Part shown: piece after piece, positions 1,631 through 57,881 of the stretch
How the letters are laid out: each line of letters opens with the position of its first letter
Numbering within the stretch: the first letter of the stretch is position 1
Origin: a virus
Strand: one strand, 5' to 3'
Virus record (IMG/VR): IMGVR_UViG_3300045988_170943
Coordinates: 32,001-96,000 of that record
Length of the DNA stretch: 64,000 bases
The notes under the pieces: generated by a model
Told to the model about the DNA's origin: nothing
What the model saw: the letters and a program-made list of their open reading frames with translations, nothing else
The model's database searches: none
Translations under genes and position numbers: made by a program

Positions 1631-1954
1631 ATGAGTAAGAGCGACATTCCTGCTATGTTCTATCGTGTCAAGCGGGTTCTCGCGGACTGTTTTCCTGGGG
1701 CTGAGGTTGAGCACTCCTATGTGCCTGAGAGTCCTGAGAATTATGGCGGCCATACTGCTTCAGTTCGTGATGGCAGGTTCTCTGTTATGGCGGGAGTAAG
1801 TAAGAATTTCGTCGTTGTTCTTTCTGTTTTTTATGTGGGCTATGCTTACAAGGTTACCTCTTCTGCACTTTCAGATCCTTCCAGTAAGGAGATTCGTGAG
1901 TGCCTGGTTGAGTTGTGTACTGAGTCGTTCAGGAAGTACTGCCTGGATCAGTAG
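1631..1954 (+). CDS. hypothetical protein, family C (paralog of 16787-17137)
   Basis: SD gaaggagcagaagag before ATG 1631. Shared R[VI]xxDCxPGA N-terminus and FRKYC/FKKYC C-terminus with 16787-17137. Confidence 0.6.
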   Translation: MSKSDIPAMFYRVKRVLADCFPGAEVEHSYVPESPENYGGHTASVRDGRFSVMAGVSKNFVVVLSVFYVGYAYKVTSSALSDPSSKEIRECLVELCTESFRKYCLDQ

Positions 1955-1977
1955 CGTTTCTTCGAGAGGATAACGGC

Positions 1978-2388
1978 ATGTCTGTTGAGGATTGGGGCGG
2001 GGCTCCGTTTCAGGTTGTAGTGACCTGGGCGTCAGGTGAGCGTGACGTGTACACTTTTGAGGCTAAGAACAGGGACGTTCTTAAGAGGGAGATGCTGCGT
2101 GTGCTTGATGCTGACGTGGACAGTTTTCCTTCTGTGTGGGAGCGTTCTTGCGAGGCTCTTGGAGCCAGGATTGAACCATGTGGTTTTGAGTCAGATCGGG
2201 AGGGCTTTACCATCTCAGTTGACTTGAGTGCTGGTAGTGTTCCTTACGTTCACGGAATGGCGGTTAGATGGGAGTTAGACTGCGAGGTGATCCAGTGGCT
2301 TAACCGACACGATCTCATGGATGCTATGGGTGATGGCTCTGATTTGTTCTGCAATATTGCGGACTACTGGACGGAAAATGGTGAGTAG
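1978..2388 (+). CDS. hypothetical protein
   Basis: 136 aa ORF, SD-like gagagga 9 nt upstream of ATG. Confidence 0.5.
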   Translation: MSVEDWGGAPFQVVVTWASGERDVYTFEAKNRDVLKREMLRVLDADVDSFPSVWERSCEALGARIEPCGFESDREGFTISVDLSAGSVPYVHGMAVRWELDCEVIQWLNRHDLMDAMGDGSDLFCNIADYWTENGE

Positions 2389-2689
2389 TGATCTCGGGCG
2401 TCGTATTGTCACGGCTCGACTAACACCAAGAGCATGCAGTGTCTTTTTGGGGTGCTGAAGGCTGTTCTACACTCTTTGTTCTTGGTGGCGGTTTTGTACT
2501 GCTAATGTCACCCGCCTCTTCACCGGGCGGGCTGGAGAGACATCGGCAGTGGGAGGAGTGCCCCAGCACCATGAGGCCACTCCTCCCACTGCCGCATACT
2601 GGAGGGTGGCGAGTTATGTTTGTGGTGCGGCTCATATGTGTTTAGGGTTGTGCCAGGCGCTTCGGGTGATGTAGTGTTGAGTCGTCAAG

Positions 2690-3391
2690 TTGGGGACCGT
2701 AAGGCCCAGGATGAGAGCAGAGGAAGATAGCATGGACGTCAGGTCCGTTAACATCGACACTCAGGGCGGGTTCGTTACAGGGGTCCAGGATAGTAACTGG
2801 AAGGACATTGACAATCCTCCTGCACACGTCATGGAAGTCGCTTCAGCAGTTAGTAAGGTGACTGACGGGTGGACACAGTTGTCAGTTATTGAGGATTCCG
2901 ACATCCCTTATGTTTTGGCTTTTGTACCCATGAAGACAGTAGGGGTTGTCAGTAAGGAGTTTTACCTGGCAATTGACTGCTATTCCCATGAAAATATTCC
3001 CATCATGATGCATCTTAAAATTGTTCCCGGACCGACTCCCGAACCCGTTATGACCTACACCATGTTACCTGTTGGCGGTGAGTTTGTCAACGTCAAAGGC
3101 GACATTGACCGTCTAGTGCGACGTTTCAGCACTCTGTGGGACATGCAGGAAGTCATGACAGCATCAATTGGTAATGAAGAGATTGTCTTCTTCGACGGTG
3201 AGAACATTGAGAAGATCAAGGTGTACGCCAAGGAGAACTCTCCTGAGGTTATTATCTACCAGGACAACCCTAAGAAGGAGATCATCGACAAGGTTGCTGG
3301 GATCTTCAAGGGTCACACCGTCCATGTGGGGGATGATGGCGTCACTGTACTTCTTGATCTGAAGGAGGACAGTCGTGTTTGTGCTGGGTGA
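2690..3391 (+). CDS. hypothetical protein
   Basis: 233 aa ORF with coding-like composition, preceded by a structured 300 nt intergenic region. Confidence 0.5.
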   Translation: MGTVRPRMRAEEDSMDVRSVNIDTQGGFVTGVQDSNWKDIDNPPAHVMEVASAVSKVTDGWTQLSVIEDSDIPYVLAFVPMKTVGVVSKEFYLAIDCYSHENIPIMMHLKIVPGPTPEPVMTYTMLPVGGEFVNVKGDIDRLVRRFSTLWDMQEVMTASIGNEEIVFFDGENIEKIKVYAKENSPEVIIYQDNPKKEIIDKVAGIFKGHTVHVGDDGVTVLLDLKEDSRVCAG

Positions 3392-4382
3392 GGTCACCAA
3401 GATGATGACACCTGATGACGTGGTGGTTTTCCTTAACAGGGTGACCCGTTATGATCAAATCCCCACTGACATGGATGGTTTGCTTGAGAGTGTTCGTAGT
3501 GGATCCTTGTCGCTGTACAAGTTCGATGAGGATGCCACTCTTATGGTGAACACCGTGAGTCAGTGGTTCGGCGAGGGTGAAATTGTCTCGGTGGTCCTGA
3601 GGACACAGGGTAAGAGGGTTGTTTACACTCTTTCTGAGGTCAACAGTGTCACGGGATCGTCCTTGACGTGGTGGTGGCGACGTTTCAAGACTGCTGACTA
3701 CAGACCGCTTATGGAGGCGGTTGAGCAGGGTAGGGGTATCCAGTACCGTCTGCTTGAGGCACGGGACAACAGGTTCATGGTTCAGGAGGCGGTTCAGGTC
3801 GCCTGGAATACAGCCAGAGAGATTCCAGGCGACTACTCGCTACAGTTCTTCAGGAAAGTGTTTGAAGGCTTTGGAAGTAGCGTAGACATCAGGCCCTTGC
3901 ATACGTGGCAGCCGCTTGATGACTGCGATCCACAGGAATGGAATGACTTTCTTGAGAATGGGGGTGATGTCAGGATCAGAGGCAAGGATACAGTCGTGAG
4001 AGTTGGGGACAAGTTCACTGACGGGCATATCTCCTGGTGGAAGACTCTCATTCAGGGCTCAGATTTACTGAGGGTGCTTCAAGTTGCCAAGGCGAGCGGT
4101 GTGATGTCCTCCCCTGACAGGTTCTCCTACCGCAACCTTTACCGTCATGCCGAGGGATACCGTGAGGACCTATCAGACGTTAGTGCTGCCCGGAATGATG
4201 CTGCGCTCTCCCAGAACGGCCGAGTGCACATTGTTGACATGTTCGTCACAGTAAGGGACGCCAGTCCTGTCGTGTACATGCTGTCGAATCATGGCGGGCG
4301 CTACGACTGGCGGGAGTTCAACGACCTGGGTGTTATCTCTTCTTATCTTCACCGGGTGGGCTGGCGAGACAGTAACCAGTAG
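3375..4382 (+). CDS. hypothetical protein, family A (paralog of 40761-41774 and 41800-42849; distant to family B)
   Basis: GTG start with SD aaggagga. Conserved blocks VYTLSEV...WWW and SGVMSSPxRFxYRxLY...GYREDLSD shared with five other ORFs. Confidence 0.7.
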   Translation: MFVLGEVTKMMTPDDVVVFLNRVTRYDQIPTDMDGLLESVRSGSLSLYKFDEDATLMVNTVSQWFGEGEIVSVVLRTQGKRVVYTLSEVNSVTGSSLTWWWRRFKTADYRPLMEAVEQGRGIQYRLLEARDNRFMVQEAVQVAWNTAREIPGDYSLQFFRKVFEGFGSSVDIRPLHTWQPLDDCDPQEWNDFLENGGDVRIRGKDTVVRVGDKFTDGHISWWKTLIQGSDLLRVLQVAKASGVMSSPDRFSYRNLYRHAEGYREDLSDVSAARNDAALSQNGRVHIVDMFVTVRDASPVVYMLSNHGGRYDWREFNDLGVISSYLHRVGWRDSNQ

Positions 4383-4411
4383 GCCCAGCCGCCCCCATTT
4401 GCGTGTGGTTC

Positions 4412-4460
4412 AGTTCACATGCTCACTGGCTTGCGTGTTCTGTCTTGTTGGGGGTATGGT
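4412..4460 (+). promoter_or_regulatory. Shared-type promoter AGTTCAC-N12-TTGCGT-N18-TATGGT
   Basis: Motif match upstream of the 4513 start. Confidence 0.5.
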
Positions 4461-4512
4461 TGAGTCATCGCCAGAGGGAAGAGCCCGCTGGCAGGACTCG
4501 GAGGAGAGTACT

Positions 4513-4920
4513 ATGGGCCTTAACCACGTGATTATTTCGGGTTGGGTTGTTGCCAACATTACTACTGATGACGCTAATAAGCGGGCGAACGCTTTTCGTG
4601 ACGCCTGCCGGAAGCGTTCCGAGTACGCCCAGATCGATGTTAATGTTGAGGATAAGGGCGGCCTCCCTAGTAGGATCCAGTTTATGGTGACAGGGGACTC
4701 CGATTCCCTGACGGATGACCTTAATGACCTGGTTGAGTCCACTATTACGGCAGGTCTTAACATTCAGGACCATTTTGTTCGGGGAACTTTATCAGTGACA
4801 GATCTTCGTCAGGTCAAGATGGGTGCTATTCCGGCGATGGCGGTCTATGGTTTTGACTTTGATGGTAAGGTTAAGGCTAGGGTTGAGGTATGCCCTAATG
4901 GCAGGGTTATCAGGGACTAG
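4513..4920 (+). CDS. hypothetical protein, family D (paralog of 43574-43987)
   Basis: SD ggaggagag before ATG 4513. Strong similarity (DDLNDLVESTITAGLN / VTDLRQVK) to 43574-43987. Confidence 0.7.
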   Translation: MGLNHVIISGWVVANITTDDANKRANAFRDACRKRSEYAQIDVNVEDKGGLPSRIQFMVTGDSDSLTDDLNDLVESTITAGLNIQDHFVRGTLSVTDLRQVKMGAIPAMAVYGFDFDGKVKARVEVCPNGRVIRD

Positions 4921-4937
4921 TTCTGCGTCCTGTTGTC

Positions 4938-4990
4938 AAACCGCCTTGTGGACAGTGTTGGACTACTGTCCACAAGGCGGTTTCGTTCTT
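4938..4990 (+). terminator. Rho-independent terminator-like hairpin (17 bp stem) plus T-rich tail
   Basis: aaccgccttgtggacag ... ctgtccacaaggcggtt followed by tcgttctt. Confidence 0.55.
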
Positions 4991-5061
4991 GATATGTGTG
5001 TTCAGTGTTTCAGCAGTAGACGTTTTGTTGGACACGAAGAGCACACGCATGGGTGTGGCCT

Positions 5062-5109
5062 GTTTCACTTGCTGCGGGGTTGCGTGGGCTGTTACAGGTG
5101 CTCTAGTAT
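5062..5109 (+). promoter_or_regulatory. Shared-type promoter GTTTCAC-N11-TTGCGT-N18-TAGTAT
   Basis: Motif match upstream of 5165. Confidence 0.5.
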
Positions 5110-5164
5110 TGAGTCATCAGCCAAGGGCAACAGGTCCGAGGCACGAGTCCTATAGGAGGACAAG

Positions 5165-5563
5165 ATGAACGCCATGGCCGCCACCGCCGAGAAGACCACC
5201 ACTATCTCTGTGAATGAGATGCGTGACTATGTTTTGAATGTCGTCAATGGTGACGGTTCTCTTTTCGTCTGGGGGATTATGAACCTTCCCAGCGACATTG
5301 TGCCAGAGTTCGGCATGTACGCTCCGATTGTGGATCAGGGGCGCACGAAGCGCCTTCGGCGAATGACGAAGGAGGAGAACCTGTTCGTTCTCTCTAGCAA
5401 GGAGCGACCTGGCTCAGTCAAGATCGTAGTCAAGAACGCTGATGGTTACTGGAGTGAGCATGGGGCGATTCTGGACCCGGTTCATTTCACCACGGAGGGC
5501 CTGGATGAGGTCTACGACGCCTGGAAGGATGATGCTGATCAGGAGTCCGAGGAGTGGGCGTGA
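5165..5563 (+). CDS. hypothetical acidic protein
   Basis: SD taggagga before ATG, 132 aa. Confidence 0.55.
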   Translation: MNAMAATAEKTTTISVNEMRDYVLNVVNGDGSLFVWGIMNLPSDIVPEFGMYAPIVDQGRTKRLRRMTKEENLFVLSSKERPGSVKIVVKNADGYWSEHGAILDPVHFTTEGLDEVYDAWKDDADQESEEWA

Positions 5564-5884
5564 CTTGTTGCACCCTGTTTCGTTCCTAGTGGGGGGTGGG
5601 CGTAGCCTTCTTGCCCCTGGCAATAAGAGTCGTGGTGGATGGCACGCTGAAGTATGTGTGTCACCTACCACGACTCTTGCGTTCTTCTGGTGGGTGCTTG
5701 CTGGTGTCGTTTCTGGATGCTCTTATGTTGGGGTGCTGTGACTGTCGTATCGGGGCTGCCTCGATGGTTTGTGGATCTGGGGCGGTAGAGAGTCGAGCCT
5801 GTTCTCTCCTGAAGGGGGCAGGAACCAACGAGCGAGACCCGCGGCAGGAACGGGGTGTATCCGTAGCAAGAGAGTGTGTGGCTC

Positions 5885-5932
5885 AGTTCACTCCCCTTTG
5901 AGGTTGTGTGGTCTCGTTCAGGTGCGTATAGT
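5885..5932 (+). promoter_or_regulatory. Shared-type promoter AGTTCAC-N12-TTGTGT-N17-TATAGT
   Basis: Motif match upstream of 5994. Confidence 0.5.
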
Positions 5933-5993
5933 TGTGTCTGCCAGAGAGGAAGAGCGTAAGGCTCTCCTCGCAGATTGAAGGGAAAGAGCAGCA

Positions 5994-6410
5994 ATGACCA
6001 CCAACTCGGTCTATGGGAGCATTGACGCATACATGGATCGCTCTGACCTGAAGCCTCTGATCGACGACCTGATGAGGGCTCTTGGCGCTGGAGCCCAGGT
6101 CACCGTAGAGAAGTACAGGGATCGTCACCATTCTGTCGTGTTCTCTCTGCTGACTGGTGAGGACATTGATCAGGCAGCGGTCATGGATGCTGTTCGCGCC
6201 ATCACGGAGGGCCGGGTTAGCAGGGGTGTCGTGTACTTCGTTGATCTGCGTGGCATGAGGTCAGGCATGTCACCTGAGATCACCTTGTTTGACCTGTCTC
6301 GTTCTTCGAGTGCCGTCGTTGAGGGAACCTGGTTCGGGGTGAGTGCTCAGGCTGAGGACTTTCTTGAGCCGGATTACTCTGTTGTGCACTACAGTGAGAT
6401 GCCCTGGTAA
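5994..6410 (+). CDS. hypothetical protein, family E (paralog of 38565-38966)
   Basis: Shared blocks GxID, MDAVRAI/MRAIQEV, V[YT]FVD[LM]R...P.[IM]T[LV][FY]DL. Confidence 0.6.
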   Translation: MTTNSVYGSIDAYMDRSDLKPLIDDLMRALGAGAQVTVEKYRDRHHSVVFSLLTGEDIDQAAVMDAVRAITEGRVSRGVVYFVDLRGMRSGMSPEITLFDLSRSSSAVVEGTWFGVSAQAEDFLEPDYSVVHYSEMPW

Positions 6411-6560
6411 GGGCTGGTACGTATGGTGTGCGCTTTCGCCATGAAGAATACCATTATCTGGTTCTGCTAGAGGAAGAGGATCATGTTTTCATCGGTTGTG
6501 TCGGCTGGCACTGTTTTTACTCCAGGGGATGGTGCAGGTAGTATTGTCTCTTAATGGGCG

Positions 6561-7028
6561 ATGGTTGTGGTAGCGACTTTAGGTTTTGTCTTTGCTTTGA
6601 TAGCGGTTTTGATTCTTATAGCCGGGCACAAGATTGAGGATCCTAAAGAGAACATGGTGGCCCTTATGACTTTCCTTGCCGTCTTTGTTGCTGCCGACTT
6701 CTGTTTCTCGAGGGCAAGCGTATTCTATCGGCAGTCGTTTCCAGGTGAATCAACTGTTGAGGGCACTGTCGTCAAAGTCATGGACGTTGGGTCTGATGGT
6801 GCCGAACTGCTGTTTGACGACGGCAAGTCGGTGCGCATGTACAATTCGGGGAACGATTTGAAGGACGTTCAGGGTCTAAGAGTTCTTCTGACGTGTGACA
6901 CAAACAAAAACACCAACGACAGTTTCGATGACATCAACAAGTGCGAGTATGAGAAGGTTGTTTCAATTCCTTCCTCCACCCCTAGTGGGAGCAGTGGCGA
7001 GGTTCAGCAAAAGCACAATTCGAACTGA
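6561..7028 (+). CDS. small membrane protein, family F (with 16126-16626 and 40207-40692)
   Basis: Two N-terminal hydrophobic helices. C-terminal domain with conserved L[KT]CD motif as in the other two members. Confidence 0.55.
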   Translation: MVVVATLGFVFALIAVLILIAGHKIEDPKENMVALMTFLAVFVAADFCFSRASVFYRQSFPGESTVEGTVVKVMDVGSDGAELLFDDGKSVRMYNSGNDLKDVQGLRVLLTCDTNKNTNDSFDDINKCEYEKVVSIPSSTPSGSSGEVQQKHNSN

Positions 7029-7171
7029 AGAGAGTAGTGTGCACAGGGTAATTGTGCTTTGCTTCTTTAGGTGCAAAGTAGGTCAAGGTCGCCTTCGTCT
7101 GGTATTAGGTGGTTGGGTTGCCACATATATAGTGGCAACCAGGTCATTCCCCATAATGCCCTGTGTAACCC

Positions 7172-7219
7172 AGTTCACTGATCATCGTGTTGACTTCGTT
7201 CCTGATTCGATCATATACT
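7172..7219 (+). promoter_or_regulatory. Shared-type promoter AGTTCAC-N11-TTGACT-N18-TATACT
   Basis: Motif match upstream of 7272. Confidence 0.5.
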
Positions 7220-7271
7220 TAAACCATCGCAAGACACACAGGGTGACTTGCAGCAATTGTAGGAGATAGAA

Positions 7272-7778
7272 ATGAGTATTGCTGTTGAGACGACTCAGAA
7301 GTTTTTTGAAGGTGTCGAGGAGGCTGCTAAGAACGGACAGGTTTTCAGCCAGGACGCTGGTATTGATGATGGTCTTGTACTGACTGTTAGTCCTGACGGT
7401 GGCGCTGTATGTCACCTTTTCAGAGAGCAGGTGGCTACCCTCCCTGCTGGCAGCACCCCGGATGAGGTGCTTGCCTTCTAGTCTGAGTCTGTCCGCAAGT
7501 TTGCTCCATCCTACAGTGAGGCTGCCGGAACGATGACTTTTGTCAAGGACCTGAGGGTGGGGGATGTCATTGTTGACGAGGACGGCCTGAACGCTAAGGT
7601 CGTCTGCACGCTCGGCGGTGATCCTACCTATGTGACGCTTATCTCCCACGGATATATTACTGCTAGAAATTATGACGGTAAGCAGATCCAGAAGTTTCGG
7701 GAATACCCTGAGGGCAGTATGAAGGCTGTTGATCTACTGTGGGCCTCTGACGGCGACATCCTCTATCAGAACGACTAA
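7272..7778 (+). pseudogene. Family G gene interrupted by a single in-frame TAG (7479-7481); encodes two ORFs of 69 aa (7272-7481) and 81 aa (7533-7778) that correspond to the N- and C-halves of the intact paralog 48227-48706
   Basis: 7272 and 7533 are in the same frame and no other stop lies between them. The paralog has Tyr at the TAG position (EILNYYSTSIRQ vs EVLAF*SESVRK). Confidence 0.6.
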
Positions 7779-7809: not shown

Positions 7810-7866
7810 CCCCTGTGCCAGGCGCGCAACTCACTTTACGTGCGCGCCTGGCACAGGGTTTTATTG
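7810..7866 (+). terminator. Rho-independent terminator (18 bp stem, TTTTATT tail)
   Basis: cccctgtgccaggcgcgca ... tgcgcgcctggcacaggg then ttttattg. Confidence 0.6.
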
Positions 7867-9257: not shown

Positions 9258-9890
9258 ATGTCTTGCACCACCGATTTCCTCGCTAAGAGGAACAAGAATT
9301 TCCGTGAGGTCATTGAGGCAGAGAGTTCTATTGAACTCATCTACGCTATGCAGGTGCTTCATCCCGCCCAGATGACTCAGGTGGCAGAGATGTCGCGCCT
9401 TGTTCACAAGGACTACACTGAGAAGGTCCGTAAGATTACGGGCGACTTCTCGTCGCTTGTGATTCGTGACACTGACGGAGAAAGTGACAGCGAGTACATT
9501 GTTGTTCGTTATGATGCCCTCTATGATGGTGGTCGCGGAAAGTGGAGCAAGGACAATCGTTTTGGCTACAAGGGAGGCGTGTCTACTGACACCCTGGACG
9601 CTCTTTGGCGTGCGTTTGAAGTCCTTGTAGATTGTCCTTATGACATGTACTACGAGAACAGGGAGGAGATTAAGGATTGCCTTGAGGAGGAGCACGCCCA
9701 GGCTGTTGTCCTCTCTAAGTTGCTGGGTACCGACAAGGCACTTGAAATGTTCTCCTTCTGCATTGAGTACGTAAATGGGTTCAAGATCGTTTCGACTGGC
9801 GGCATCTTTGATGGCAAGTTCGGAGTGATTGTCGTCAAAGATCACAAGGATCGGCGCTATCGTGTTGGCACTCGTGCAACCAGTAAGTAG
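9258..9890 (+). CDS. hypothetical protein
   Basis: SD gaacaaggagc before ATG 9258. Upstream AGTTCAC element at 9095. Terminator hairpin follows. Confidence 0.55.
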   Translation: MSCTTDFLAKRNKNFREVIEAESSIELIYAMQVLHPAQMTQVAEMSRLVHKDYTEKVRKITGDFSSLVIRDTDGESDSEYIVVRYDALYDGGRGKWSKDNRFGYKGGVSTDTLDALWRAFEVLVDCPYDMYYENREEIKDCLEEEHAQAVVLSKLLGTDKALEMFSFCIEYVNGFKIVSTGGIFDGKFGVIVVKDHKDRRYRVGTRATSK

Positions 9891-10159: not shown

Positions 10160-10534
10160 ATGAGTGATAGCACTGTGAAGAACGTTCGTGAGATTGAGAC
10201 CCGTCTCCTGGCTGGGACGATTGTTGAAACCCGTAAGGTCCTGAAGGTCGTTGACGGTGAGGTGCGTGAGTACACCACCATCCTCACTGAGAGCGATTTC
10301 GAGGAGTATGACCCCTATGATGAGGAGGCGTACTACCCGATTGGTGACACCTTCCCTGGTGCCATCGAGGGTGGTGAGAGACTTCTTGGCCACCAGCACG
10401 TCATCAAGACCTTCGTGGACGGTGACACCTGGGAGAGCACTTGGGGTTGCCACTTTGTCAGCGAGACTACTGGTGAGATTGTGGCGACCATGTACTGCCG
10501 AGGAGAGCACATGGGAACCTACTACGGGAAGTAA
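10160..10534 (+). CDS. hypothetical protein, family H (paralog of 12338-12694)
   Basis: SD cacgaggagaa. Shared blocks KVVDGEV[RK][ED]Y[TV]TI[LV]TE[SA]D and FPG...W...HWG..F with 12338-12694. Confidence 0.65.
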   Translation: MSDSTVKNVREIETRLLAGTIVETRKVLKVVDGEVREYTTILTESDFEEYDPYDEEAYYPIGDTFPGAIEGGERLLGHQHVIKTFVDGDTWESTWGCHFVSETTGEIVATMYCRGEHMGTYYGK

Positions 10535-11417: not shown

Positions 11418-11966
11418 ATGTTCGGTATTGAGAACGTCAAGGGCTTCATTAGCGACGCGGTAACGTGGGCTAGCACCCATGAGTATGCTGATGGTGGTGA
11501 CAACACCTATACCAGTACAGACGGTTACCTTAGTCTCACGATTAACCCTGGAGGAATCTCTGCCAGGGCTGTTCTCCCTGTCTTTTCTGACAATGGCAGG
11601 TGGGAGATGGCTTTTGTGGCGGAACGCGACACACTCACCCCGAAAGCGGTCAAGGAGGCTGTTCAGGAGGTAGCCACCGAGCATGATGTCATGTACCAGA
11701 TTGCGAGGTCTCTTGCCTCCTATGGGTGGTATGTAAGTGTTCTTCACACTGACGGAAAATCTCTTACTGCCAAGCGCTACGGGGGACACGACATCTGTGT
11801 ACACAATGACCTCATTGAACGTTCCGTCTACATCGGAGGGAATGGGCAGAGTATTGCCTTAATGCATTTGAGCAATGCCGGGCTATTGAAGACCAACAAC
11901 AATGCGTCTGAGCATCGCGGTCGCTATCGGATTGCTGACTGGCTGTTTAACGGTTACGATTTCTAG
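11418..11966 (+). CDS. hypothetical protein, GW family (with 17305, 21910, 29096)
   Basis: SD agaagagggggg. Shared central block ...[AS]L...GW.V... with three other ~170 aa ORFs. Confidence 0.6.
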   Translation: MFGIENVKGFISDAVTWASTHEYADGGDNTYTSTDGYLSLTINPGGISARAVLPVFSDNGRWEMAFVAERDTLTPKAVKEAVQEVATEHDVMYQIARSLASYGWYVSVLHTDGKSLTAKRYGGHDICVHNDLIERSVYIGGNGQSIALMHLSNAGLLKTNNNASEHRGRYRIADWLFNGYDF

Positions 11967-12232
11967 GTCATCGTATATCCTGATGTGCTGATTCAACCAC
12001 TAAAGAGCGCACACAAGGGGATTACGGTCAGAGTGCTTCCTAGATTCCAGTAGAGCCAGCAAAGTGACTGTACAAGCCCCCTGTGGTCTTCTGCGGCATG
12101 TTCCCACGCAACATGACCTGGGTTCTTGACTGTGGACGTTCTAGGAGTCCTAGGGGCCAGTGAGCATGAGATGCGTCAGAGGAGACAGGACGTCCCTTCT
12201 GACGCAACGTTTACACACTTGGATAGTGACCC

Positions 12233-12285
12233 AGTTCACGTAATGTGTGGTTGCGGCCAGCCTGATCTACATGTATCGTTATAGT
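12233..12285 (+). promoter_or_regulatory. Shared-type promoter AGTTCAC-N11-TTGCGG-N17-TATCGT(TATAGT)
   Basis: Motif match upstream of 12338. Confidence 0.55.
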
Positions 12286-12337
12286 CATCAAGGCGAGAGC
12301 AAAGGGCTCGGAGCCAAGATAGAACAAGGAGACTGCA

Positions 12338-12694
12338 ATGACTACAGCCGCTCACATCACCCGCACTGTTTACACTGAGGCCCTTGACGGTCAGACGATT
12401 GTTGAGGTCAGCACCACTCGCAAGATTGTTGACGGTGAGGTCAAAGACTATGTGACGATTGTCACCGAGGCGGACCTTGCAGACTGTGAGAATGGGGAGG
12501 ACCCACAGGGAATCACCTTCCCTGGTCGCTTCATCGACTTGGAAGCGGTCAACAAGATGGTCGGGTACCCTTTTGAGGTGTATATGTTCGAGGATGGTGA
12601 GGACTGGTCCGACCACTGGGGTGTTCGGTTCACGAACGGGTATAGGTACAAGGACCTTGTCCTGCACTGCCGTGGTGGTGAGCCCCTGTCCTGA
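12338..12694 (+). CDS. hypothetical protein, family H
   Basis: SD gaacaaggagac. Paralog of 10160-10534. Confidence 0.65.
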   Translation: MTTAAHITRTVYTEALDGQTIVEVSTTRKIVDGEVKDYVTIVTEADLADCENGEDPQGITFPGRFIDLEAVNKMVGYPFEVYMFEDGEDWSDHWGVRFTNGYRYKDLVLHCRGGEPLS

Positions 12695-46155: not shown

Positions 46156-46170
46156 TAAGCCACTAACTGT

Positions 46171-46920: not shown

Positions 46921-46967
46921 AGTTCACACATAGCGGGGTTGCAGTCTGCCGCGGCAACCTGTACGCT
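46921..46967 (+). promoter_or_regulatory. Shared-type promoter AGTTCAC-N11-TTGCAG-N17-TACGCT
   Basis: Motif match upstream of 47018. Confidence 0.55.
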
Positions 46968-47017
46968 TAAACCATCAGGAACACGACGGCGATTACCGCC
47001 AGAACGGAGACAGACAG

Positions 47018-47506
47018 ATGAGCATCAATCTTGTTGCCAACATGGTTATTGGCAAACGCGAGACTGTCAACATTCTCAACCCCGACGAGAATGAGAGTTG
47101 GGTTTCTTTCCGCCGCGCCGAGTTCAATTTCGACTCCGTGAGCGACTTTATTACCGTGGTTAAGAGGTTGTTCCTCATGGATCACCCTCACTCCGATCTT
47201 CTGATGAACGAGCGTGACAGGGAGGCGGTTCGTATCCCTACTTTCCTCCAGGTCGCTGAGGATCTTGGTGCGGAGGTTGAAGATGTTGAGCGACCTGGTG
47301 ACAGGGATTGTCTGTCTGGTGGGTTCGGGGACGATGCCGCGATCCTGTTTGGTGGAACCGTCTTCCCTGACGAGGACAACACCTACCTGGCTCTTTTCGG
47401 CAGTTCAGCATCCGGGGACCGGAAGTGGCCAGGCCACAAAGACGTGGTAGATGCTGTTAGGGGAGGCTTCGTCGCCCAGGAGGCCAAGAACCTGGGAATC
47501 AAGTAG
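47018..47506 (+). CDS. hypothetical protein
   Basis: 162 aa ORF after the promoter. Confidence 0.55.
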   Translation: MSINLVANMVIGKRETVNILNPDENESWVSFRRAEFNFDSVSDFITVVKRLFLMDHPHSDLLMNERDREAVRIPTFLQVAEDLGAEVEDVERPGDRDCLSGGFGDDAAILFGGTVFPDEDNTYLALFGSSASGDRKWPGHKDVVDAVRGGFVAQEAKNLGIK

Positions 47507-47531
47507 AAGTACGTTAACCCTAGGGTGGTGT

Positions 47532-47579
47532 ACTTCACATGACCTTGGGTTGCTTCACCTGGTAGGGGTGACATATACT
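47532..47579 (+). promoter_or_regulatory. Shared-type promoter ACTTCAC-N11-TTGCTT-N18-TATACT
   Basis: Motif match upstream of 47634. Confidence 0.5.
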
Positions 47580-47633
47580 AGAGTCATGACAGGGAGCAAT
47601 AAGAGCGCTCTGACTAGATAGAAAGGCTCAGTT

Positions 47634-48014
47634 ATGTCAGGCTTCTTCCGTAAGGCCCAGGCAGAGTCGGAGATTGATACGGTTATGCGTAACGTCTGTG
47701 ACGCCTTCCGTGATGAGTTCAATGTGGAGCCATCCATCTCTGACGATAGTGCACCCTTCTCCTTCCGTGCGTACCACTTTGACGCGCGTTGCAAACACCT
47801 TGTTATCGCCCGTCGAGTCATTGATCACTGGGTGATTGATGTTGCTCTTCAGATCCCTCGCAAGGATGAGATTCTTAAGGGACAGTCAACCACTACTGAT
47901 GTATCCTATGGTGGGGTCAAGGCGGCCATCTCGAACGCTCTCTACCATGGGGTCGTTGTGGATCGTATCAGCGGTGAGGTTATTCGTCGTCTCGGACACA
48001 GGCGCTCCGCCTGA
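47634..48014 (+). CDS. hypothetical protein
   Basis: 126 aa ORF. Confidence 0.5.
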   Translation: MSGFFRKAQAESEIDTVMRNVCDAFRDEFNVEPSISDDSAPFSFRAYHFDARCKHLVIARRVIDHWVIDVALQIPRKDEILKGQSTTTDVSYGGVKAAISNALYHGVVVDRISGEVIRRLGHRRSA

Positions 48015-48226
48015 CAGTTTCTACACATAAACAACAGGTGTATGTGACGTGGATCGTTCGGTTTCATGCAGGCCGCCCACCAATACCGTCGCTCGCAGTG
48101 GGGTGCTGTTGTTGCACACATCACTACCACCTAAGTTGAATGACCTCTTGTGGTCGTGTACACTGAAAGCACCTAAGGGCAGAAGGCGGGCAGGGCCGAC
48201 TGCAAGACGAACAGGAAGAGAAGACC

Positions 48227-48706
48227 ATGATGGACGCGAAGGGCTTCATCAACAAGATCGAGCAGGCCATGAAGAACGGTGAGACCTTTACTCACGCTGT
48301 TGGCAGTTACGGCAGTTTTGAAGTCACTGTTTCCCCTGATGGTAGTGCAGTGTGCAAGTTGGAGGACGAAGAGCACAGTACTCTTCCTGCCGGTAGCAGC
48401 CCGGAAGAGATCCTTAACTACTACTCAACAAGTATCCGCCAGTCGTCCTACTCTTACGACACTGAGGGTGGAGGGTCCGTGACCTTTGTGAAGGACCTCC
48501 AGGTCGGCGACGTCATTCTCTACAGCCTGCATGGCGACGGGAACGCTAAGGTTGTCTCTGTAGACACGACTGACAGTGAGATCGTTGTGACTTTCGTTGT
48601 CCATTCTCCTGGCAGGACGTGGAAGCAGGTTGATACCTACCCTGCCGGGTCTATGATGGAGTTCGATCTCCTTTGGGGGGCTGACTGGGTTCCTGAGGAG
48701 AAGTAG
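48227..48706 (+). CDS. hypothetical protein, family G, intact fused form (N-half ~7272-7481 product, C-half ~7533-7778 product)
   Basis: SD gaacaggaagagaagacc. Collinear similarity to both halves of the interrupted locus. Confidence 0.65.
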   Translation: MMDAKGFINKIEQAMKNGETFTHAVGSYGSFEVTVSPDGSAVCKLEDEEHSTLPAGSSPEEILNYYSTSIRQSSYSYDTEGGGSVTFVKDLQVGDVILYSLHGDGNAKVVSVDTTDSEIVVTFVVHSPGRTWKQVDTYPAGSMMEFDLLWGADWVPEEK

Positions 48707-50322: not shown

Positions 50323-51423
50323 ATGACAGTCAAGATTAATGACGCCAAGTATAAGGTGCTCGGCATGCTGGCCGAGATCTCCGATGACGAGTTCACCAGG
50401 TGGAGTGAGAAGCAACTTCATGCCGTCCAGCGCAGCATCATTGAGCGAGTGTCTTCTGGCCCTGAGAAGATCAAGGGCTTCAACAAGAGGATCACCGATC
50501 TCTTCAACAAGGCATCCTATGTCAACAATAACGTGGTTTGCTACGTTGCTGTTGACGACGAGGAAGAGATCATCCTCTACTCTCTCGCCAAGACTTCAGC
50601 AAATAGTTTTGACCGCCACGAGTACGACACGTTCGGCTGGGACTTGGACACACTGAGCCATGACGATGACAGGATTGAGAACGTTGAAGTTCTTGCCGAT
50701 GTTATTGACAAGGCTAATGACCTTCGACGCAATTTCTTGCAGGCGACCGGCAGTCGTTTCGAGACCTGGAACGCATGTCAGGACCTTTGGGTCACCTGCT
50801 ACATAGCGAACGAGCAAATTTCTATGGCTGCCCAGCAGATGCATGACTTCATCGACCAGATCATGAGTTTCGTTCTTGGTGAGACGGGCTCTTTCAAGCC
50901 TAAGAAGGATCCCATCGGTGAGATTGAGTACTGGTTCTATGACGGGGGAACCATCTCTATCAAGAACGGGTACTACACTGAAACCTACAAGGTAGGCCCC
51001 CAGTACTTTGACGGTATCAAGACCTCCTGGATTTATCGGGCTAATGCCGTGGGACTCTCTGGGGATGCGGCTGATCTGATGAACGACATCCTTAAGAGCG
51101 GTGTCATGGCCTCCACAGAGAAGTTCGACTACTCGGAAGTGTACTCCCAATTCCCCGGGTACAGTAAGGAACTGACTGATCTGAGCAAGATGCAGGACGA
51201 CAAGACCTTCAACTATGGTGGAGACACTGACATCATTGACGGTTTCGTTATCGCCGACGAGGTGAAGAACGTTGACGACTCCTGGGCCCACGCTAGCGGC
51301 TACTACTCCGTAGCGGTCCTGTCTCGAAGCATCGACGAGGACACCTACTCCTGGAAGGAAATCTACGACTGGGGTGAGGTGTATGATTATCTCGTTCGGG
51401 CAGGCATGAAGGTCGAAGAGTGA
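50323..51423 (+). CDS. hypothetical protein, family B (with 54757-55854 and 56838-57881; distantly related to family A)
   Basis: Shared C-terminal core SGVM[AS].....F.Y...Y.....G[FY]....[LP]SD with family A. Confidence 0.65.
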   Translation: MTVKINDAKYKVLGMLAEISDDEFTRWSEKQLHAVQRSIIERVSSGPEKIKGFNKRITDLFNKASYVNNNVVCYVAVDDEEEIILYSLAKTSANSFDRHEYDTFGWDLDTLSHDDDRIENVEVLADVIDKANDLRRNFLQATGSRFETWNACQDLWVTCYIANEQISMAAQQMHDFIDQIMSFVLGETGSFKPKKDPIGEIEYWFYDGGTISIKNGYYTETYKVGPQYFDGIKTSWIYRANAVGLSGDAADLMNDILKSGVMASTEKFDYSEVYSQFPGYSKELTDLSKMQDDKTFNYGGDTDIIDGFVIADEVKNVDDSWAHASGYYSVAVLSRSIDEDTYSWKEIYDWGEVYDYLVRAGMKVEE

Positions 51424-52032: not shown

Positions 52033-52209
52033 CATGAGCACCAACAGTGCCAAGACTCTCGTTCATATTTCTTACGCTCTGTTCGCCATGGCTACAGTGT
52101 TTGGGGTTGCCGCCATCGTTGGCGGTCACTCCAACGCTTTTATGACTGGGTTGCTGGGGCTGGGTGGGGCTCTGTTTTACGCCAAGGCCGAGAAGACCGC
52201 CAACGAGTA
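52033..52209 (+). CDS. small membrane protein (58 aa), not in ORF track; abuts IS copy 2 left end
   Basis: Hydrophobic, Gly-rich helix-forming sequence; SD-like aggaagaaacaccc. The overlapping 91 aa track ORF is Arg-rich and read as a wrong-frame artefact. Confidence 0.4.
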
Positions 52210-52214
52210 GTGTC

Positions 52215-53795
52215 TATTTATACCGTCAACCAGTCAAGTTCTTGAGAGGAGGCTCAACAGAAGTGCCTAGAACCATTGTGTCGCGCACGTATCCTCGTAC
52301 ACCGTATGCTGCGTTCAGCAAGACTGGTGAGCCCTTAGATCTTGATGTGGTACTGGCTGGTATCAGGAAGGATGCTGAACTGGTTGTCCACTATGCCCTA
52401 CAAGAGATGACTGAGCATAATCTCGCTCTGGTGACCTATTTTGACAGGTTCAAGCCTGCTGAGGCAGGGCGGAGAATGGGTCTGTTTCTCCCTAGCGAGG
52501 TGAAGAAGCGGTTCAAAAGTGGGGCCTCACGACTGGAGAAGATGTTCCAGGAGCAGGCCGTGACTGCCTTACGTTCCTGGGCCACCAGATCTGGGGTTGT
52601 CTCTGGGAACTACACTGGCTACGTCTCCGCTGGCTGGAAGAGAACAGTCGGGGACTCCAGGTCAAGGGCCCTACAGCCTCGGCTCGCCCTGTCTGCTACA
52701 GATAAGCAGTACAGGCGTATGAGTGTTACACCAGAACGTATTTCTCTTGACATGGTTGTTCAGGGCCAGTGGGTGACACTGCATTTTCCTGTTCCTCCAC
52801 AACTTTTAGAGCAGGGCTGTGAGCCAGGTGTTCCAGACATCTGGGTTGACAGTCAAGGTCGAGTGATGTTTGGTCTCCATGGCATGACAGATCCTGGCAG
52901 ACCGGAGTTCTCACCCAGGTACGTCATTGGCGTGGATGTGGGGGTCACTAACCCGGCCGCCTATGTTGTCTGGGACACTGAGAAGAGGGAAATTGTCGAG
53001 AAGTCTCTGCTTGATCAGAGGGCGCGGTCTCTGCATAACAAAATCAAACGCGGGGTTAGGCAAGTGTCCTCTCTACAGAGGAAGAACCGCCCCGAGGAGG
53101 CCGTGCCCCATAGGGCGCATCTATCGAATCGGCGTAAGGAACTGAGTATCCTTGTGGCTCAGGAGGTCGCGGACGCTGCCTGGAGGTATGGTAACGCCCT
53201 GGTGGTGTTTGAGGATCTGAGCCATATCAGGAACACCATGAGGTTTGGACGTTGGTTCCGTGGCGAGGTGCATAGAAGAACACGGGACATGGTTGAGGCT
53301 GACGGTGGACGAGTGATGAAGGTGAACGCGGCGTACACCTCGAAGAGGTGTCATGTCTGTCAGTCTGATCTGGACATGAGCGACTACAGTAGCCCTGTGT
53401 GTCACTCATGCAACATCACTCATCACCGGGACGTCAACGCGGCGGCGAATATTGCCCAGCGGGCCAACGTCAAGAAGGCTTGTCAGACCAGGATGCGGCA
53501 CACCACGAAGACGAAGCGTGTCCGCCGCTCCAAGTGCCGGATAAAACCACTGAAATATCCTGGTACGAAGAACAAACCAACACCCAAGGCGCCCCAGAAC
53601 CGACCTAAGACTCATGCTCACTCGTCTCTTCCAAAGATGGAGGTGAGTAAGGGGATGTGCCCCGCAGAGTCTAGGGTTTCTGCGGTGGACCACAGGGAGT
53701 GGTTTCAGACAACCAGCGGCACGACAGTTCTAAAGGAGAACCTATCTATTGGGAATACAATAGATGTGGTTTATCCTAAGGAATAGTCATACTCT
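52215..53795 (+). mobile_element. IS605-family (IS1341-like, tnpB-only) insertion sequence, copy 2
   Basis: Aligns to copies 1 and 3 from about 45 nt upstream of the start to about 9 nt past the stop. Confidence 0.6.
52263..53786 (+). CDS. tnpB: TnpB-like RNA-guided endonuclease, 507 aa, probable GTG start (the track ORF from 52164 is an upstream over-extension)
   Basis: Same RuvC/zinc-finger motifs as copy 1. SD gagaggagg, then GTG at 52263, aligns with the ATG of copy 1. Confidence 0.85.
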   Translation: MPRTIVSRTYPRTPYAAFSKTGEPLDLDVVLAGIRKDAELVVHYALQEMTEHNLALVTYFDRFKPAEAGRRMGLFLPSEVKKRFKSGASRLEKMFQEQAVTALRSWATRSGVVSGNYTGYVSAGWKRTVGDSRSRALQPRLALSATDKQYRRMSVTPERISLDMVVQGQWVTLHFPVPPQLLEQGCEPGVPDIWVDSQGRVMFGLHGMTDPGRPEFSPRYVIGVDVGVTNPAAYVVWDTEKREIVEKSLLDQRARSLHNKIKRGVRQVSSLQRKNRPEEAVPHRAHLSNRRKELSILVAQEVADAAWRYGNALVVFEDLSHIRNTMRFGRWFRGEVHRRTRDMVEADGGRVMKVNAAYTSKRCHVCQSDLDMSDYSSPVCHSCNITHHRDVNAAANIAQRANVKKACQTRMRHTTKTKRVRRSKCRIKPLKYPGTKNKPTPKAPQNRPKTHAHSSLPKMEVSKGMCPAESRVSAVDHREWFQTTSGTTVLKENLSIGNTIDVVYPKE

Positions 53796-54756: not shown

Positions 54757-55854
54757 ATGACGTCTCAGGACTCACAGCACCACCAGAACCTTGCTGTCCT
54801 TAGAGAGATAGTCGAGGATGAACTTGTAAGACATGGCAGTAGCGTCACTGACCTGGAAATGCTTGATGCTGTGCGACCCAGGTACGACCAGCATCCTGAT
54901 TCAACTGGAGATTTGATCAGGGTTCACCTGAATCCTATGTGGCTCATTTCTGATCATGTTGCCACGTTTATTGTGCGCAACCCTGACGGAACGTTCACTG
55001 CCTTTACCCTGTCGGAGGTAGTTATTGATGATCTTCCAGGAGGTTGCGTAAAGGTCTGGGGGTTCCAAGTTCTTTGGGACGACGATTACGAGAAGACGAT
55101 CAAGGTATGGGACTTGTGCAGCAACCTTGATAACCTTCGCCGCAAACGACTCAACCTTCCACGCGAATCAGACAAGTGGGACCTATACCAGTTAGCCCAG
55201 CAGGTTTGGTCCATTTGCCACCAGATTGCCGAGATTCTTGAGGTGGATGAGTACACGCTTGAAGAAGATGTCCCCAGTATCATCAATCGGATACTTCAGT
55301 GCGTGCTCCTTGTCCACATTGGTGAGGCCAAGGTTGAGAGGGAACGTCTCGTGGTCGCTGACCGTGAGAGCAGTGGGCTGGAACTGACTGACCGGAATGT
55401 TCCGCGAGTCATGCACGCAACAGGTCTCTGGCTGCAAAAGGGTGGCATTCTAGGGTTCGGTCACTCTTCCTTCTTCAGGCTCCCCAGTTACGCCTACCAA
55501 GGGTTCCATGTCGGCCCTGAGTATGCTGGTGGGATCATGGAGAAGTGGATCGATGACGCCAAGAAGGTTCGCAACGAGAAGAAGGTGCTAGAACTTCTGA
55601 ACGACATTGCCAACAGTGGGGTGTCATACTCAGACAGCATTGATTTTGATTGGCGAGACATCTACTCGTATATCCCTGGTTTCTGTGACGACCTGAGCGA
55701 CATTGAATCTGTCCGTGTGGTTGTTGAAGAGAACACCCATGAGTATGCTGTAGCCGGGTTCGTCATGAAGGATAATCCTAACGGAAAGGCCACCTATTTA
55801 TACCTGATTGACGACGGCCAACTTTTCTGGACGTCATGGAGCACCAAGCGATGA
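54757..55854 (+). CDS. hypothetical protein, family B
   Basis: SD taaggggagaaaac before ATG 54757. Conserved C-terminal core. Confidence 0.65.
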   Translation: MTSQDSQHHQNLAVLREIVEDELVRHGSSVTDLEMLDAVRPRYDQHPDSTGDLIRVHLNPMWLISDHVATFIVRNPDGTFTAFTLSEVVIDDLPGGCVKVWGFQVLWDDDYEKTIKVWDLCSNLDNLRRKRLNLPRESDKWDLYQLAQQVWSICHQIAEILEVDEYTLEEDVPSIINRILQCVLLVHIGEAKVERERLVVADRESSGLELTDRNVPRVMHATGLWLQKGGILGFGHSSFFRLPSYAYQGFHVGPEYAGGIMEKWIDDAKKVRNEKKVLELLNDIANSGVSYSDSIDFDWRDIYSYIPGFCDDLSDIESVRVVVEENTHEYAVAGFVMKDNPNGKATYLYLIDDGQLFWTSWSTKR

Positions 55855-56057
55855 GAACATTGAGAAGCCTTTCAGGGGTGCGATGGACATTGAGGCTGAC
55901 AACTGTGCTCCCACTGAATACGGCAGACAGGGCACCCCGTTTTAGTGGCGTGTGACGCTGATTGGTGCTTAGATAGTAAGGGTGCGTGCATAGAGTTTTC
56001 TACTCTGCACGCACCCTTACTGCCTCTCTTGATCGAATCTTGACTTATCTATCAAAG

Positions 56058-56555
56058 TCAGCGGTATGTGAACTTAGTGGGTATTTTTGCTGGCTTGTAG
56101 TCAGAGAAAGTCACTACTCCTTCAGCAACCATGACGTGAGGATCGCTGCTGGACACGGAGTACTTGGAGACGTCCAGATTGTCTTCTCCTAGCAGAGTGA
56201 ACTCAAGAGAGAAGGTAATGCCATGATCGTCCATGAACTTCTTGAACGTCTGAAGTTCTGATGCCAGTTCATATGCCTTCCCATCTTCGTATGAGACCTC
56301 GTAATCAAGCCCCTTGATATAGTCGCCAGTAAAGGTCAGTTCAGGACGGAACTCAATAACATACGTCAGGAATGAATCTTTTAGTCGATTCTCAATCAGT
56401 TCATTCCAGTCCTTCAGTGAGATCAGCCGACCACTGAAATCAGAAGTGAATGAGACGTCATCAATGCTGGAATAGTACCCCATATCGCACCACGCTTTCT
56501 GTGAGACTGTTGGATGCAGGTTGCTCTTTACCCTATCACATGCTTCGTCCGTCAA
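56058..56555 (-). CDS. hypothetical protein, family K
   Basis: Paralog of 31562-32050. Confidence 0.6.
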   Translation of the reverse strand: MTDEACDRVKSNLHPTVSQKAWCDMGYYSSIDDVSFTSDFSGRLISLKDWNELIENRLKDSFLTYVIEFRPELTFTGDYIKGLDYEVSYEDGKAYELASELQTFKKFMDDHGITFSLEFTLLGEDNLDVSKYSVSSSDPHVMVAEGVVTFSDYKPAKIPTKFTYR

Positions 56556-56837
56556 TCCAGCCTAAGCATGTGACCTATAACACAAGAGGTGTCAGTAGAG
56601 GGGTAAAACATTATCATCTGTGAGAGCGTTATCGTGGGGGATCTTGTAGTGATACTTGCCCCGGCAACCGCAACTAGGGGCGACCCTCAGAGGTGGGAAG
56701 TCCATGCTGTACCTCACTAGCATGGGCTGTATGATCAGTGTCACTACTTTCTAAGGTTGAGCCGCCACTCGCAACTGGTGTAACCTGGATGCAAGTCAAC
56801 CAACAAGTAGACAGCAACAGGCGAAAGGGTACGCACC

Positions 56838-57881
56838 ATGGCGGCGAAGAACCGTAACGACCGGAAGAACAACGCGATCTCTGAGGGAGATAGTGTCTAT
56901 GAGGCGCTTGCTATCCTTTCTAGGATCTCCGATTCTGTGATCCGAGAGAACACCCCAGGCCGGAACTTCGTCAAGGAAATTGTGTCTAAGGCAGCATGCG
57001 TCCCAAACTTTGACGCCGAGTCCACTAAGTTAGCGAACCAGGCTGCCTCCCTCAGTGGCGTTGTTTGCTCAGTTGTCACGGAGGAGAACAGTAAGTGTAT
57101 CCTCTACACACTCACTAAGGCGAGCACTCCTGTCCTCATGGAGGAGGTGTACAGTTGGAGCGTCAGCACCATGAGCGGTGACGACTACCACCTGATGGAG
57201 GCGTTCGCTTGTGCCGTTGATGCCGCGATCTCGATTAAGCGGAACATCGCCCTGAAGAAGGGCAACAAGTACCTGACCCATAACGAGATCCAGGCCCTCT
57301 GGGCTCTTCTCAACTCGGTCGATACGAAGGTCCCCAACGTGTACGGGACGGCCAAGATCATCACCCAGATTGCCCGCCACGTGCTCGGGAATGAGGCGTT
57401 CATCGGAACCGAACATGACTTCAACATCAACCACAACTCCTACAACGTCTCGTGGGAGTGGGTCTCTAACGGTGGCATTGTCGAGTTCAACGACATCGTT
57501 TACGAGGTCGGCCCAAAGTTCATGGACGGGCTTGAGAGTTACTGGGGCGACTGGGCGACTGAGGCTGCACCTTGGGACATGGTTGAACTCCTGAATGAGG
57601 TGAAGGATAGTGGCGTCATGACTGCTGGGCCAGCGTTCTTCGACTACTCCACCCTGTACTCCAAGGCGCCTGGCTTCTGTGAGGGGCCTAGTGACCCGAC
57701 ACTGATGCAGATCAACAACCCCTACAATGTTGACGTTGACATCGCGGATGGGTTTGTGATGGAGTTTGAGGGCGACAAGTACGCCATCGTGCTCTCCAAC
57801 TCCCACGACGACGCGGACAAGTACGAGTGGAAGATGATCACGAGTGACCGCTTCCTCCGGGGTATTGGTGCCCTGACCTGA
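56838..57881 (+). CDS. hypothetical protein, family B
   Basis: Conserved C-terminal core; the antisense 289 aa ORF is read as a shadow. Confidence 0.65.
   Translation: MAAKNRNDRKNNAISEGDSVYEALAILSRISDSVIRENTPGRNFVKEIVSKAACVPNFDAESTKLANQAASLSGVVCSVVTEENSKCILYTLTKASTPVLMEEVYSWSVSTMSGDDYHLMEAFACAVDAAISIKRNIALKKGNKYLTHNEIQALWALLNSVDTKVPNVYGTAKIITQIARHVLGNEAFIGTEHDFNINHNSYNVSWEWVSNGGIVEFNDIVYEVGPKFMDGLESYWGDWATEAAPWDMVELLNEVKDSGVMTAGPAFFDYSTLYSKAPGFCEGPSDPTLMQINNPYNVDVDIADGFVMEFEGDKYAIVLSNSHDDADKYEWKMITSDRFLRGIGALT

Follow-up and report, generated by a model that had tools for sequence, protein, structure and literature searches.

Multigene families and "genomic accordions" are known from DNA viruses of eukaryotes, as in the amplification of K3L in poxviruses and the multigene families MGF110, MGF360, and MGF505 of African swine fever virus. 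Large phages carry host-takeover or early modules, such as the host-takeover module of SPO1 and the early genes of T4 and T5. Hyperplastic regions with promoter-early stem-loop (PeSL) cassettes have been described in T4-like phages (Arbiol et al. 2010, PMC2839356; Comeau et al. 2014, PMC4122927). Here, we analyzed a stretch of 64,000 nucleotides (nt) of the IMG/VR virus record IMGVR_UViG_3300045988_170943 (positions 32,001 to 96,000 of the record), hereafter called the window, in which families of diverged paralogs account for about 40% of the genes. It is likely that the window represents a hyperplastic accessory region that was shaped by old small duplications, recombination between paralogs, shuffling of a promoter cassette, and exchange. 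Such regions have been described before, in T4-like phages and in large DNA viruses of eukaryotes; the lineage, the gene families, and the cassette are new examples.

Comparing the window with the T4-like PeSL regions, both contain variable small genes of unknown function, each flanked by a short composite promoter and stem-loop motif, and in both the gene content and order vary among close relatives. The breakpoints, which coincide with the motifs in the T4-like regions, may do so here as well, judging from the segment boundaries in an alignment with the relative L015. However, the motif of the window consists of a box resembling the binding site of CRP, −35 and −10 elements, and a hairpin inside the transcript, whereas in PeSL an early promoter comes after a terminator. 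The region here is also larger (at least 64–85 kb), and ~40% of its genes are paralogous. Similarly, the eukaryotic-virus accordions share with the window lineage-specific paralogs in accessory regions, variation in tandem copies, recombination between paralogs, and a presumed role in host interaction. Unlike them, the window is of prokaryotic type, with sigma-70-like promoters and Shine–Dalgarno sequences, and its copies are old, none being more than 50% identical to another, with no recent amplification. The SPO1, T4, and T5 early modules likewise encode dozens of small, often acidic proteins, mostly on one strand and with host-type promoters and ribosome-binding sites. What the window has in addition is a leader hairpin and a further conserved box upstream; its paralogy is far more extensive, and its early timing is one that we infer.

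We propose that ~85 small, mostly acidic genes without a known domain are arranged mainly as one-gene or few-gene units, each with a stereotyped cassette. The paralogs would have arisen through many old small-scale duplications, either tandem or dispersed and sometimes of two or three genes jointly. Some copies would later have been lost, and paralogs would have recombined by unequal crossing-over or gene conversion, with cassettes being shuffled and sequences exchanged with related phages. The cassettes could provide co-ordinated early expression, and the proteins may act on variable host targets in takeover, anti-defense, or exclusion, which would explain their diversification. An early host-takeover or anti-defense role, as suggested in an initial annotation of the window, would fit a layout in which each gene has its own promoter with elements of the host type and the proteins are small, acidic, and diversifying. 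The region illustrates the ways in which a very large phage-like genome, uncultivated and probably from the human mouth, builds and remodels its accessory genes: old small duplications, recombination of tandem paralogs into hybrid genes, and rearrangement of units that run from promoter to terminator. The lineage-restricted families, two of which were modeled without a match to a solved fold, are candidate new host-interaction proteins, and the shared cassette offers a handle for the regulator and the expression class. Current ideas are not overturned by these findings.

Paralog families of the window

Paralogy was examined by all-versus-all BLASTP of every window open reading frame of at least 50 amino acids, with iterated jackhmmer as a second check. 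The window has a G+C content of ~52% and 87 curated genes, 71 of them on the + strand. Thirteen families including TnpB hold 37 of the 87 genes, and 12 families hold 34 of the 84 non-TnpB genes (~40%). The initial annotation had listed 13 groupings by comparing translations; all were significant in BLASTP, and jackhmmer returned the same clusters. It had overlooked a three-copy TnpB family and two further members of family J. The encoded proteins are small (median 165 amino acids) and acidic (median isoelectric point 4.9), with hydrophobic segments in family F and several others. The ratio of nonsynonymous to synonymous substitution rates of orthologs in relatives is 0.05–0.7, mostly 0.1–0.3, and thus these are real genes under constraint.

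The paralogs differ strongly, with 20–50% amino acid identity among the non-TnpB families, close to the 25–50% that had been estimated by eye. Orthologs in related genomes are 45–97% identical, consistent with the earlier view that the duplications are old. DNA self-similarity outside the TnpB genes is confined to 67–75% within family A and to 81% over 74 nt 5′ of the two family H genes. This short leader match aside, non-TnpB DNA repeats reach at most 75% identity, and the recent near-identical copies that would be typical of a genomic accordion were not found among them. Because longer repeats in the window stay at or below 76% identity and independently assembled copies match it at 100%, an assembly artifact or a recent duplication, which the initial annotation had also discounted, is excluded.

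Families A and B together comprise six genes (all coordinates refer to the window and to the + strand unless stated, and genes are named by their first position). Family A is composed of A1 (3375–4382), A2 (40761–41774), and A3 (41800–42849), which are 38–47% identical to one another (E 1e-76 to 1e-106). A1 is 47% identical to A2 and 38% to A3 and has an 81% ortholog in the relative L012, a 233-kb contig. A2 stands in tandem with A3 (E 1e-106) and has no separate gene in the relatives L013 and L014, where A3 has orthologs of 72–74%. Family B includes B1 (50323–51423; E 1e-31 versus B3), with a 40% ortholog in 534-kb relatives, B2 (54757–55854; E 2e-11 within B), which is the subtype with the widest conservation and has a 69% ortholog in 534-kb and 398-kb relatives, and B3 (56838–57881). 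B3 bridges the two families, as its alignment with A1 (E 2e-16) is full length and includes the shared SGVM...GYREDLSD core that had been pointed out previously; A and B thus form one superfamily.

The remaining families are smaller. The family C genes (1631–1954 and 16787–17137) match at E 3e-7. D1 (4513–4920), immediately 3′ of A1, and D2 (43574–43987), separated from A3 by one gene, are 50% identical (E 2e-47), whereas E1 (5994–6410) and E2 (38565–38966), the latter immediately 3′ of the J gene 37899, are related at E 3e-13. In family F, the genes at 16126–16626 and 40207–40692 are 37% identical (E 6e-25), and a divergent membrane protein (6561–7028) with an L[KT]CD motif and two hydrophobic segments matches 40207 at E 2e-4 and is joined to the family by jackhmmer. 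The two family H genes (10160–10534 and 12338–12694; E 1e-14) are those with the 81% identical leaders. Four genes form the GW family, with 11418–11966 matching 21910–22431 at E 3e-9, 17305–17811 matching 29096–29605 at E 9e-15, and a value of E 1e-9 for 21910. Family I consists of 20101–20757 and 44965–45372 (41% identity, E 4e-32), the start of the latter being fixed by a promoter cassette at 44855. The family J genes 22467–23111 and 37899–38546 (E 5e-37) are joined in both BLASTP and jackhmmer by the new members 9258–9890 (E 1e-9 versus 22467) and 5165–5563 (E 5e-7 versus 22467); the latter has the N-terminal domain only, and homologs of 130 amino acids exist. Family K has one member on each strand (31562–32050 and, on the − strand, 56058–56555; 32% identity, E 5e-25), and a tandem pair lies at 29617–30249 and 30252–30665 (E 3e-10). 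A weak extra pair was seen between 2690–3391 and 18019–18594 (BLASTP E 4e-4), and a C-terminal D-L-F-x-x-Y-G-L motif is common to the tandem pair (29617–30249) and 59026–59535 (E 0.3).

In family G, G2 (48227–48706) is unbroken, whereas G1 (7272–7778) is one frame broken by an in-frame TAG at 7479–7481, with the parts beginning at 7272 and 7533 matching G2 at E 6e-16 and 4e-9, respectively. The L012 ortholog has Trp at this position, the part 3′ of the stop is still conserved, and the split is also present in another assembly of the same genome. The TAG is either a recent nonsense mutation or a sign that the two halves are translated separately. Stop-codon recoding is unlikely to be the cause of the split, since TGA (38), TAG (25), and TAA (24) all serve as stops in the window.

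As the initial annotation had remarked, the families carry no recognizable domain. A family match was found in only 4 of 86 scanned proteins, namely the three TnpB copies and a CPBP/Rce1-like protease, and a fifth protein matches PHROG 14301. Profile searches of PDB with A/B, J, and GW were negative, and the structure models of B1 and of J 22467 (predicted local distance difference test score 87) showed no known fold. A defense-system search gave no matches apart from the TnpB/Cas12-like genes, no toxin domains were found, and the window families have no sequence or fold match to described anti-defense, defense, or toxin-immunity families. The A/B profile retrieved 95 proteins from a set of 5.8 billion sequences, all without a name and on similar large contigs, and only 20 clusters among 1.84 billion representatives. 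Homologs of J were likewise found only on similar large contigs. In deposited phages or plasmids, A, I, J, and TnpB have no similarity or a marginal one.

Gene order and segmental duplication

The initial annotation explained the families by one ancient large segmental duplication that left two partly collinear halves, at ~1–24 kb and 37–58 kb, blurred by shuffling, deletion, and tandem re-duplication. By family, the order of the first part is C.. A D J E F G G.. J H. GW H. T. F C GW ... I.. GW J, and that of the second part is J E.. F A A. D. I ... G.. B. T. B K B. Micro-synteny of A with D and of J with E and F is present in both, with zero to two genes between members, and this part of the claim that local order was kept in both halves holds. 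The order as a whole gives it little support. In permutation tests, collinear chains were not above chance (p = 0.15–0.83), the longest being J-E-F with three genes and A-D with two, and the counts of neighboring family pairs, a statistic in which large families yield many chance pairs, did not exceed those of shuffled gene orders (p = 0.34–0.77). Symmetric windows with shared families gave p = 0.04–0.27. Order and orientation are thus not conserved along the two segments beyond chains of three genes, and the sub-blocks are swapped, with A-D / J-E-F / G in the first part and J-E-F / A-A-D ... G in the second.

The strongest signal is a seven-gene block at 3375–7778 (~4.4 kb; A D J E F G), all six families of which recur in the 16-gene stretch 37899–48706 (p = 0.005, with sizes picked post hoc; p = 0.013–0.057 at other window sizes). 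This recurrence, together with the same relative order and strand of A-D, J-E-F, and A-D-G, the similar divergence of the A, D, and G pairs (43–50%), and the A-D adjacency that both paralog sets keep in relatives, would be expected of a segmental duplication. However, with the post hoc sizes, p values of 0.013–0.27 at other sizes, and the chain tests given above, the statistics are modest, and a block of 4.4 kb is no half. All copies of C, H, GW, and the tandem pair lie within the first 31 kb, and those of B within 50–58 kb, so that these families duplicated inside one part. The F and J copies of the second stretch are closest to 16126 and 22467, which lie outside the first block, rather than to the copies within it, and the wide span of paralog identities (22–50%) indicates several ages.

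The relative L012 bears on the same question. Its gene order is H, 2690, 23135, E1, the 39147 ortholog, A1 (81%), D1 (77%), GW, 18019, H, I, G, and 8235, such that the adjacency of A1 and D1 is kept. The 39147-like gene is a single-copy ortholog, nearest to the L014 version. Genes E, A, and D of the first-half type thus surround the 39147 ortholog in second-half order, indicating that the order is fluid and was not inherited from two halves. Taken together, a single large duplication with two collinear halves is not supported as it was stated, and we regard this explanation as improbable; at most, one block of ~4.4 kb and seven genes is over-represented in 37.9–48.7 kb. One small multi-gene duplication, or the co-duplication of A-D and of J-E-F, is plausible. 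Tandem re-duplication and later shuffling, which formed part of the same proposal, are borne out by differences in copy number and order among relatives.

Recombination among relatives and the promoter cassette

The preferred reading of many old, small duplications agrees with the age of the paralogs. Orthologs of A1, D1, E1, and H in L012 are 50–81% identical, compared with 31–50% between paralogs, and the duplications are therefore older than the split of these relatives. Moreover, orthologs of B2 (69%) and B1 (40%) stand one gene apart in the 534-kb and 398-kb relatives, so the B duplications predate the whole group.

Later remodeling is visible in L013 and L014, which are collinear with the window over 29.6–51 kb. 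The tandem A locus has two copies in the window and in the relative L001 and one copy in L013 and L014, and family F has one copy at the window locus (40207) and two in tandem in L014. The single A gene of L013 (P0008, L013 10001–10957) is chimeric: its first ~100 residues are 87–100% identical to 40761 and the remainder 92–100% to 41800. P0011 is the converse chimera, with a 40761-type body and a 41800-type C terminus, and its junction differs from that of P0008. Chimeric genes between tandem copies, a hallmark of genomic accordions, are thus represented twice. Because exact matches between 40761 and 41800 do not exceed 20 nt, assembly collapse is an unlikely source of the chimeras. P0008 is also missing 30 residues, exactly the stretch between two direct repeats that encode DYGW at a spacing of 90 nt and are visible in the 41800 gene of the window (42658–42678 and 42748–42768); this loss appears to be a repeat-mediated deletion.

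Over 29.6–51.6 kb of the window, nucleotide identity to L001, L013, and L014 jumps from gene to gene. Against L013 it ranges from 72 to 97%, as seen for 31078 (97%), 30252 (72%), 38565 (75%), 39751 (96%), and 47634 (78%). Such mosaic divergence points to frequent exchange or recombination among co-circulating relatives. Alignment segments between the window and L015 open at promoter boxes and close at palindromes, a pattern that faster divergence of spacers could also give. The palindromes, which are likely terminators, lie between genes, measure 46–56 nt, and are 82–87% self-complementary (4938–4983, 7811–7858, 27009–27062, and 45433–45477). The one at 4938–4983, 3′ of D1, lies where the A1-D1 block of synteny between the window and L015 stops.

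These mosaics also raise the question of whether the paralogs are mostly divergent alleles of the same cassettes, captured additively from co-infecting related phages through recombination at promoters and leaders. In addition to the gene-by-gene divergence from relatives, the cassette sequences common to all units, the coincidence of synteny breaks with cassettes, and the combination of first-half-type genes with the 39147 ortholog in L012 are consistent with such capture. However, the tandem pairs 40761/41800 and 29617/30252 and the F-F pair of L014 are most simply explained as local duplications, and the paralogs are far more diverged than the ortholog pairs seen in relatives, so that a donor lineage is not in evidence. 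Only ~30–40 nt of the cassette are conserved, which is also short for homologous recombination. We therefore consider capture a doubtful origin for most of the paralogs.

The initial annotation had imagined the small genes under a common promoter, and most window genes do carry a stereotyped promoter and leader-hairpin cassette. Its consensus runs TGTGryyyAGTTCAC, N10, GTTGC/TTGAC (−35), N17, TAnnnT (−10), ~6 nt, AUCA, hairpin, GGAG, ATG. The strict pattern AGTTCAC-N6-14-GTTG was found 17 times in the window versus 0.5 expected, and the box alone 66 times versus 23 expected. Approximately 28 cassettes are present, with a distance of 95–107 nt from box to start codon in 17 of them; examples are located at 4404–4515, 5054–5167, 12225–12340 (+), 23884–23994, 25830–25941 (−), 39038–39149, and 46913–47020. 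The cassettes explain why only 77% of the window is coding and why its spacers have a median length of 150 nt, and they correct several start codons, including those of 10160, 42964, and 44965. In single-sequence folds, 12 of 14 leaders adopt the same two-tier hairpin with stems that covary or differ in sequence, and the z scores are −2.2 to −5.1 in eleven and −1.4 in the twelfth. When the leaders were aligned with MAFFT, RNAalifold found no consensus owing to register shifts. Close relatives carry the cassette pattern frequently, whereas genomes of the 534-kb group rarely have it. A short composite promoter and stem-loop motif that recurs between variable small genes is therefore present, as in the PeSL regions.

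The CRP consensus is TGTGA-N6-TCACA, and its canonical centers are −41.5, −61.5, and similar positions. The box of the cassette fits this consensus (TGTGryyyAGTTCAC[A]) and is CRP-like by sequence only. A more far-reaching interpretation is that the cassette serves both as a shared regulatory switch and as a recombination module by which dozens of proteins of new folds, such as the six-member A/B superfamily, are duplicated, shuffled, and hybridized, making up a diversity-generating host-interaction arsenal without a described phage counterpart. We put this forward as a speculative proposal that is unlikely to hold.

Source genome and other genes

The window is 100% identical across 21 kb to the contig ERZ27262791:k119_142220 (420,306 bp) from ENA and across 14 kb to a 121-kb scaffold from the human cohort sample ZHAN15 (SAMEA2737933). 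A third sample contains the genome as a 418,686-bp contig with both termini inside the window, indicating that the genome is circular or permuted and ~420 kb in size. The IMG/VR viral contig IMGVR_UViG_3300008363_000089 (394 kb) is 86% identical to the window and collinear with it over 30.5–51.6 kb. Further related IMG/VR viral contigs measure 398 kb and 233 kb, and other relatives are 363–409-kb and 534-kb contigs from ENA, the Human Microbiome Project (HMP), and the Joint Genome Institute. The G+C content of the 534-kb and 398-kb relatives is 46%. Circular jumbo phages and linear contigs of more than 500 kb from dental plaque and tongue were reported in a preprint that covered the same cohorts (HMP and Chinese), in which a major capsid protein was required of the oral jumbo phages and megaphages (bioRxiv 10.1101/2020.07.06.186817). 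The contigs reported there match in size. Overall, the genome is a ~420-kb phage-like element of human, probably oral, metagenomes.

Several observations weigh against the reading that we prefer. Neither virion nor replication hallmark genes turned up in the ~85 kb inspected (the window and 20 kb of flanks), and hence the label "phage" rests on the IMG/VR classification of the relatives. The CRP-like box is centered near −53 by our estimate, which is not a canonical CRP position. The block-level clustering (p = 0.005–0.057) leaves room for one multi-gene duplication, and duplication within the genome is not distinguishable from an additive capture of divergent alleles of related phages.

The missing hallmark genes would also be expected of a giant plasmid or other nonviral extrachromosomal element with a contingency or immunity array, for example of polymorphic-toxin immunity proteins. 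The circular assembly is compatible with such an element, as are the nearby CPBP (Rce1-like) protease and a Zeta-toxin/AAA_33 kinase just left of the window (3763–4665 of L009). However, IMG/VR classes the relatives as viral, and contigs of matching size from the same cohorts were reported as capsid-bearing oral jumbo phages and megaphages (bioRxiv 10.1101/2020.07.06.186817). Moreover, toxin domains, plasmid matches, and defense matches beyond the TnpB/Cas12-like genes were all absent from the window, and the layout with a strong promoter for every gene differs from that of toxin-immunity operons. A nonviral element is thus very unlikely.

Three TnpB-like genes of ~510 codons, which would encode RNA-guided nucleases, are present at 13353–14879 (− strand), 52164–53786 (+ strand), and 62078–63616 (− strand). 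All three match the NCBIfam model guided_TnpB, and the first also matches PF07282 (model E values, 3e-14 for PF07282 and 6e-18 for NF040570). They are 76–79% identical in amino acids and 74–76% in DNA and retain the invariant motifs GVDVG, FEDLS, and HRDLNAA (RuvC D-E-D) and a CxxC...CxxC zinc finger. Conservation between the copies ends ~10 nt past the stop codon and ~130 nt before the start. A CRISPR array beside these Cas12-like genes was considered and rejected, as none was found; there was also no TnpA near the window TnpB genes and no Rfam match for omega-RNA. A pattern search of 185,579 species genomes returned no TnpB relatives, and the window as a whole contains no tRNA genes and no match to Rfam RNA families. 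Compared with TnpB of IS200/IS605 elements, the window genes are alike in their match to TnpB/Cas12f models, the RuvC motifs and zinc finger, the end of conservation near the stop codon, and the varying insertion sites, but have no TnpA nearby and are only 74–76% identical in DNA. A fourth copy occurs in L013 (18496–20016) at another site, which is empty in the window, and the TnpB elements appear to be additional insertion polymorphisms.

The only two other genes that could be annotated lie on the − strand. The CPBP/Rce1-like intramembrane protease is encoded at 65–1126 and is also conserved in the 534-kb relatives, and the gene at 36926–37717 matches PHROG 14301, "RNA ligase" (E 8.5e-17).

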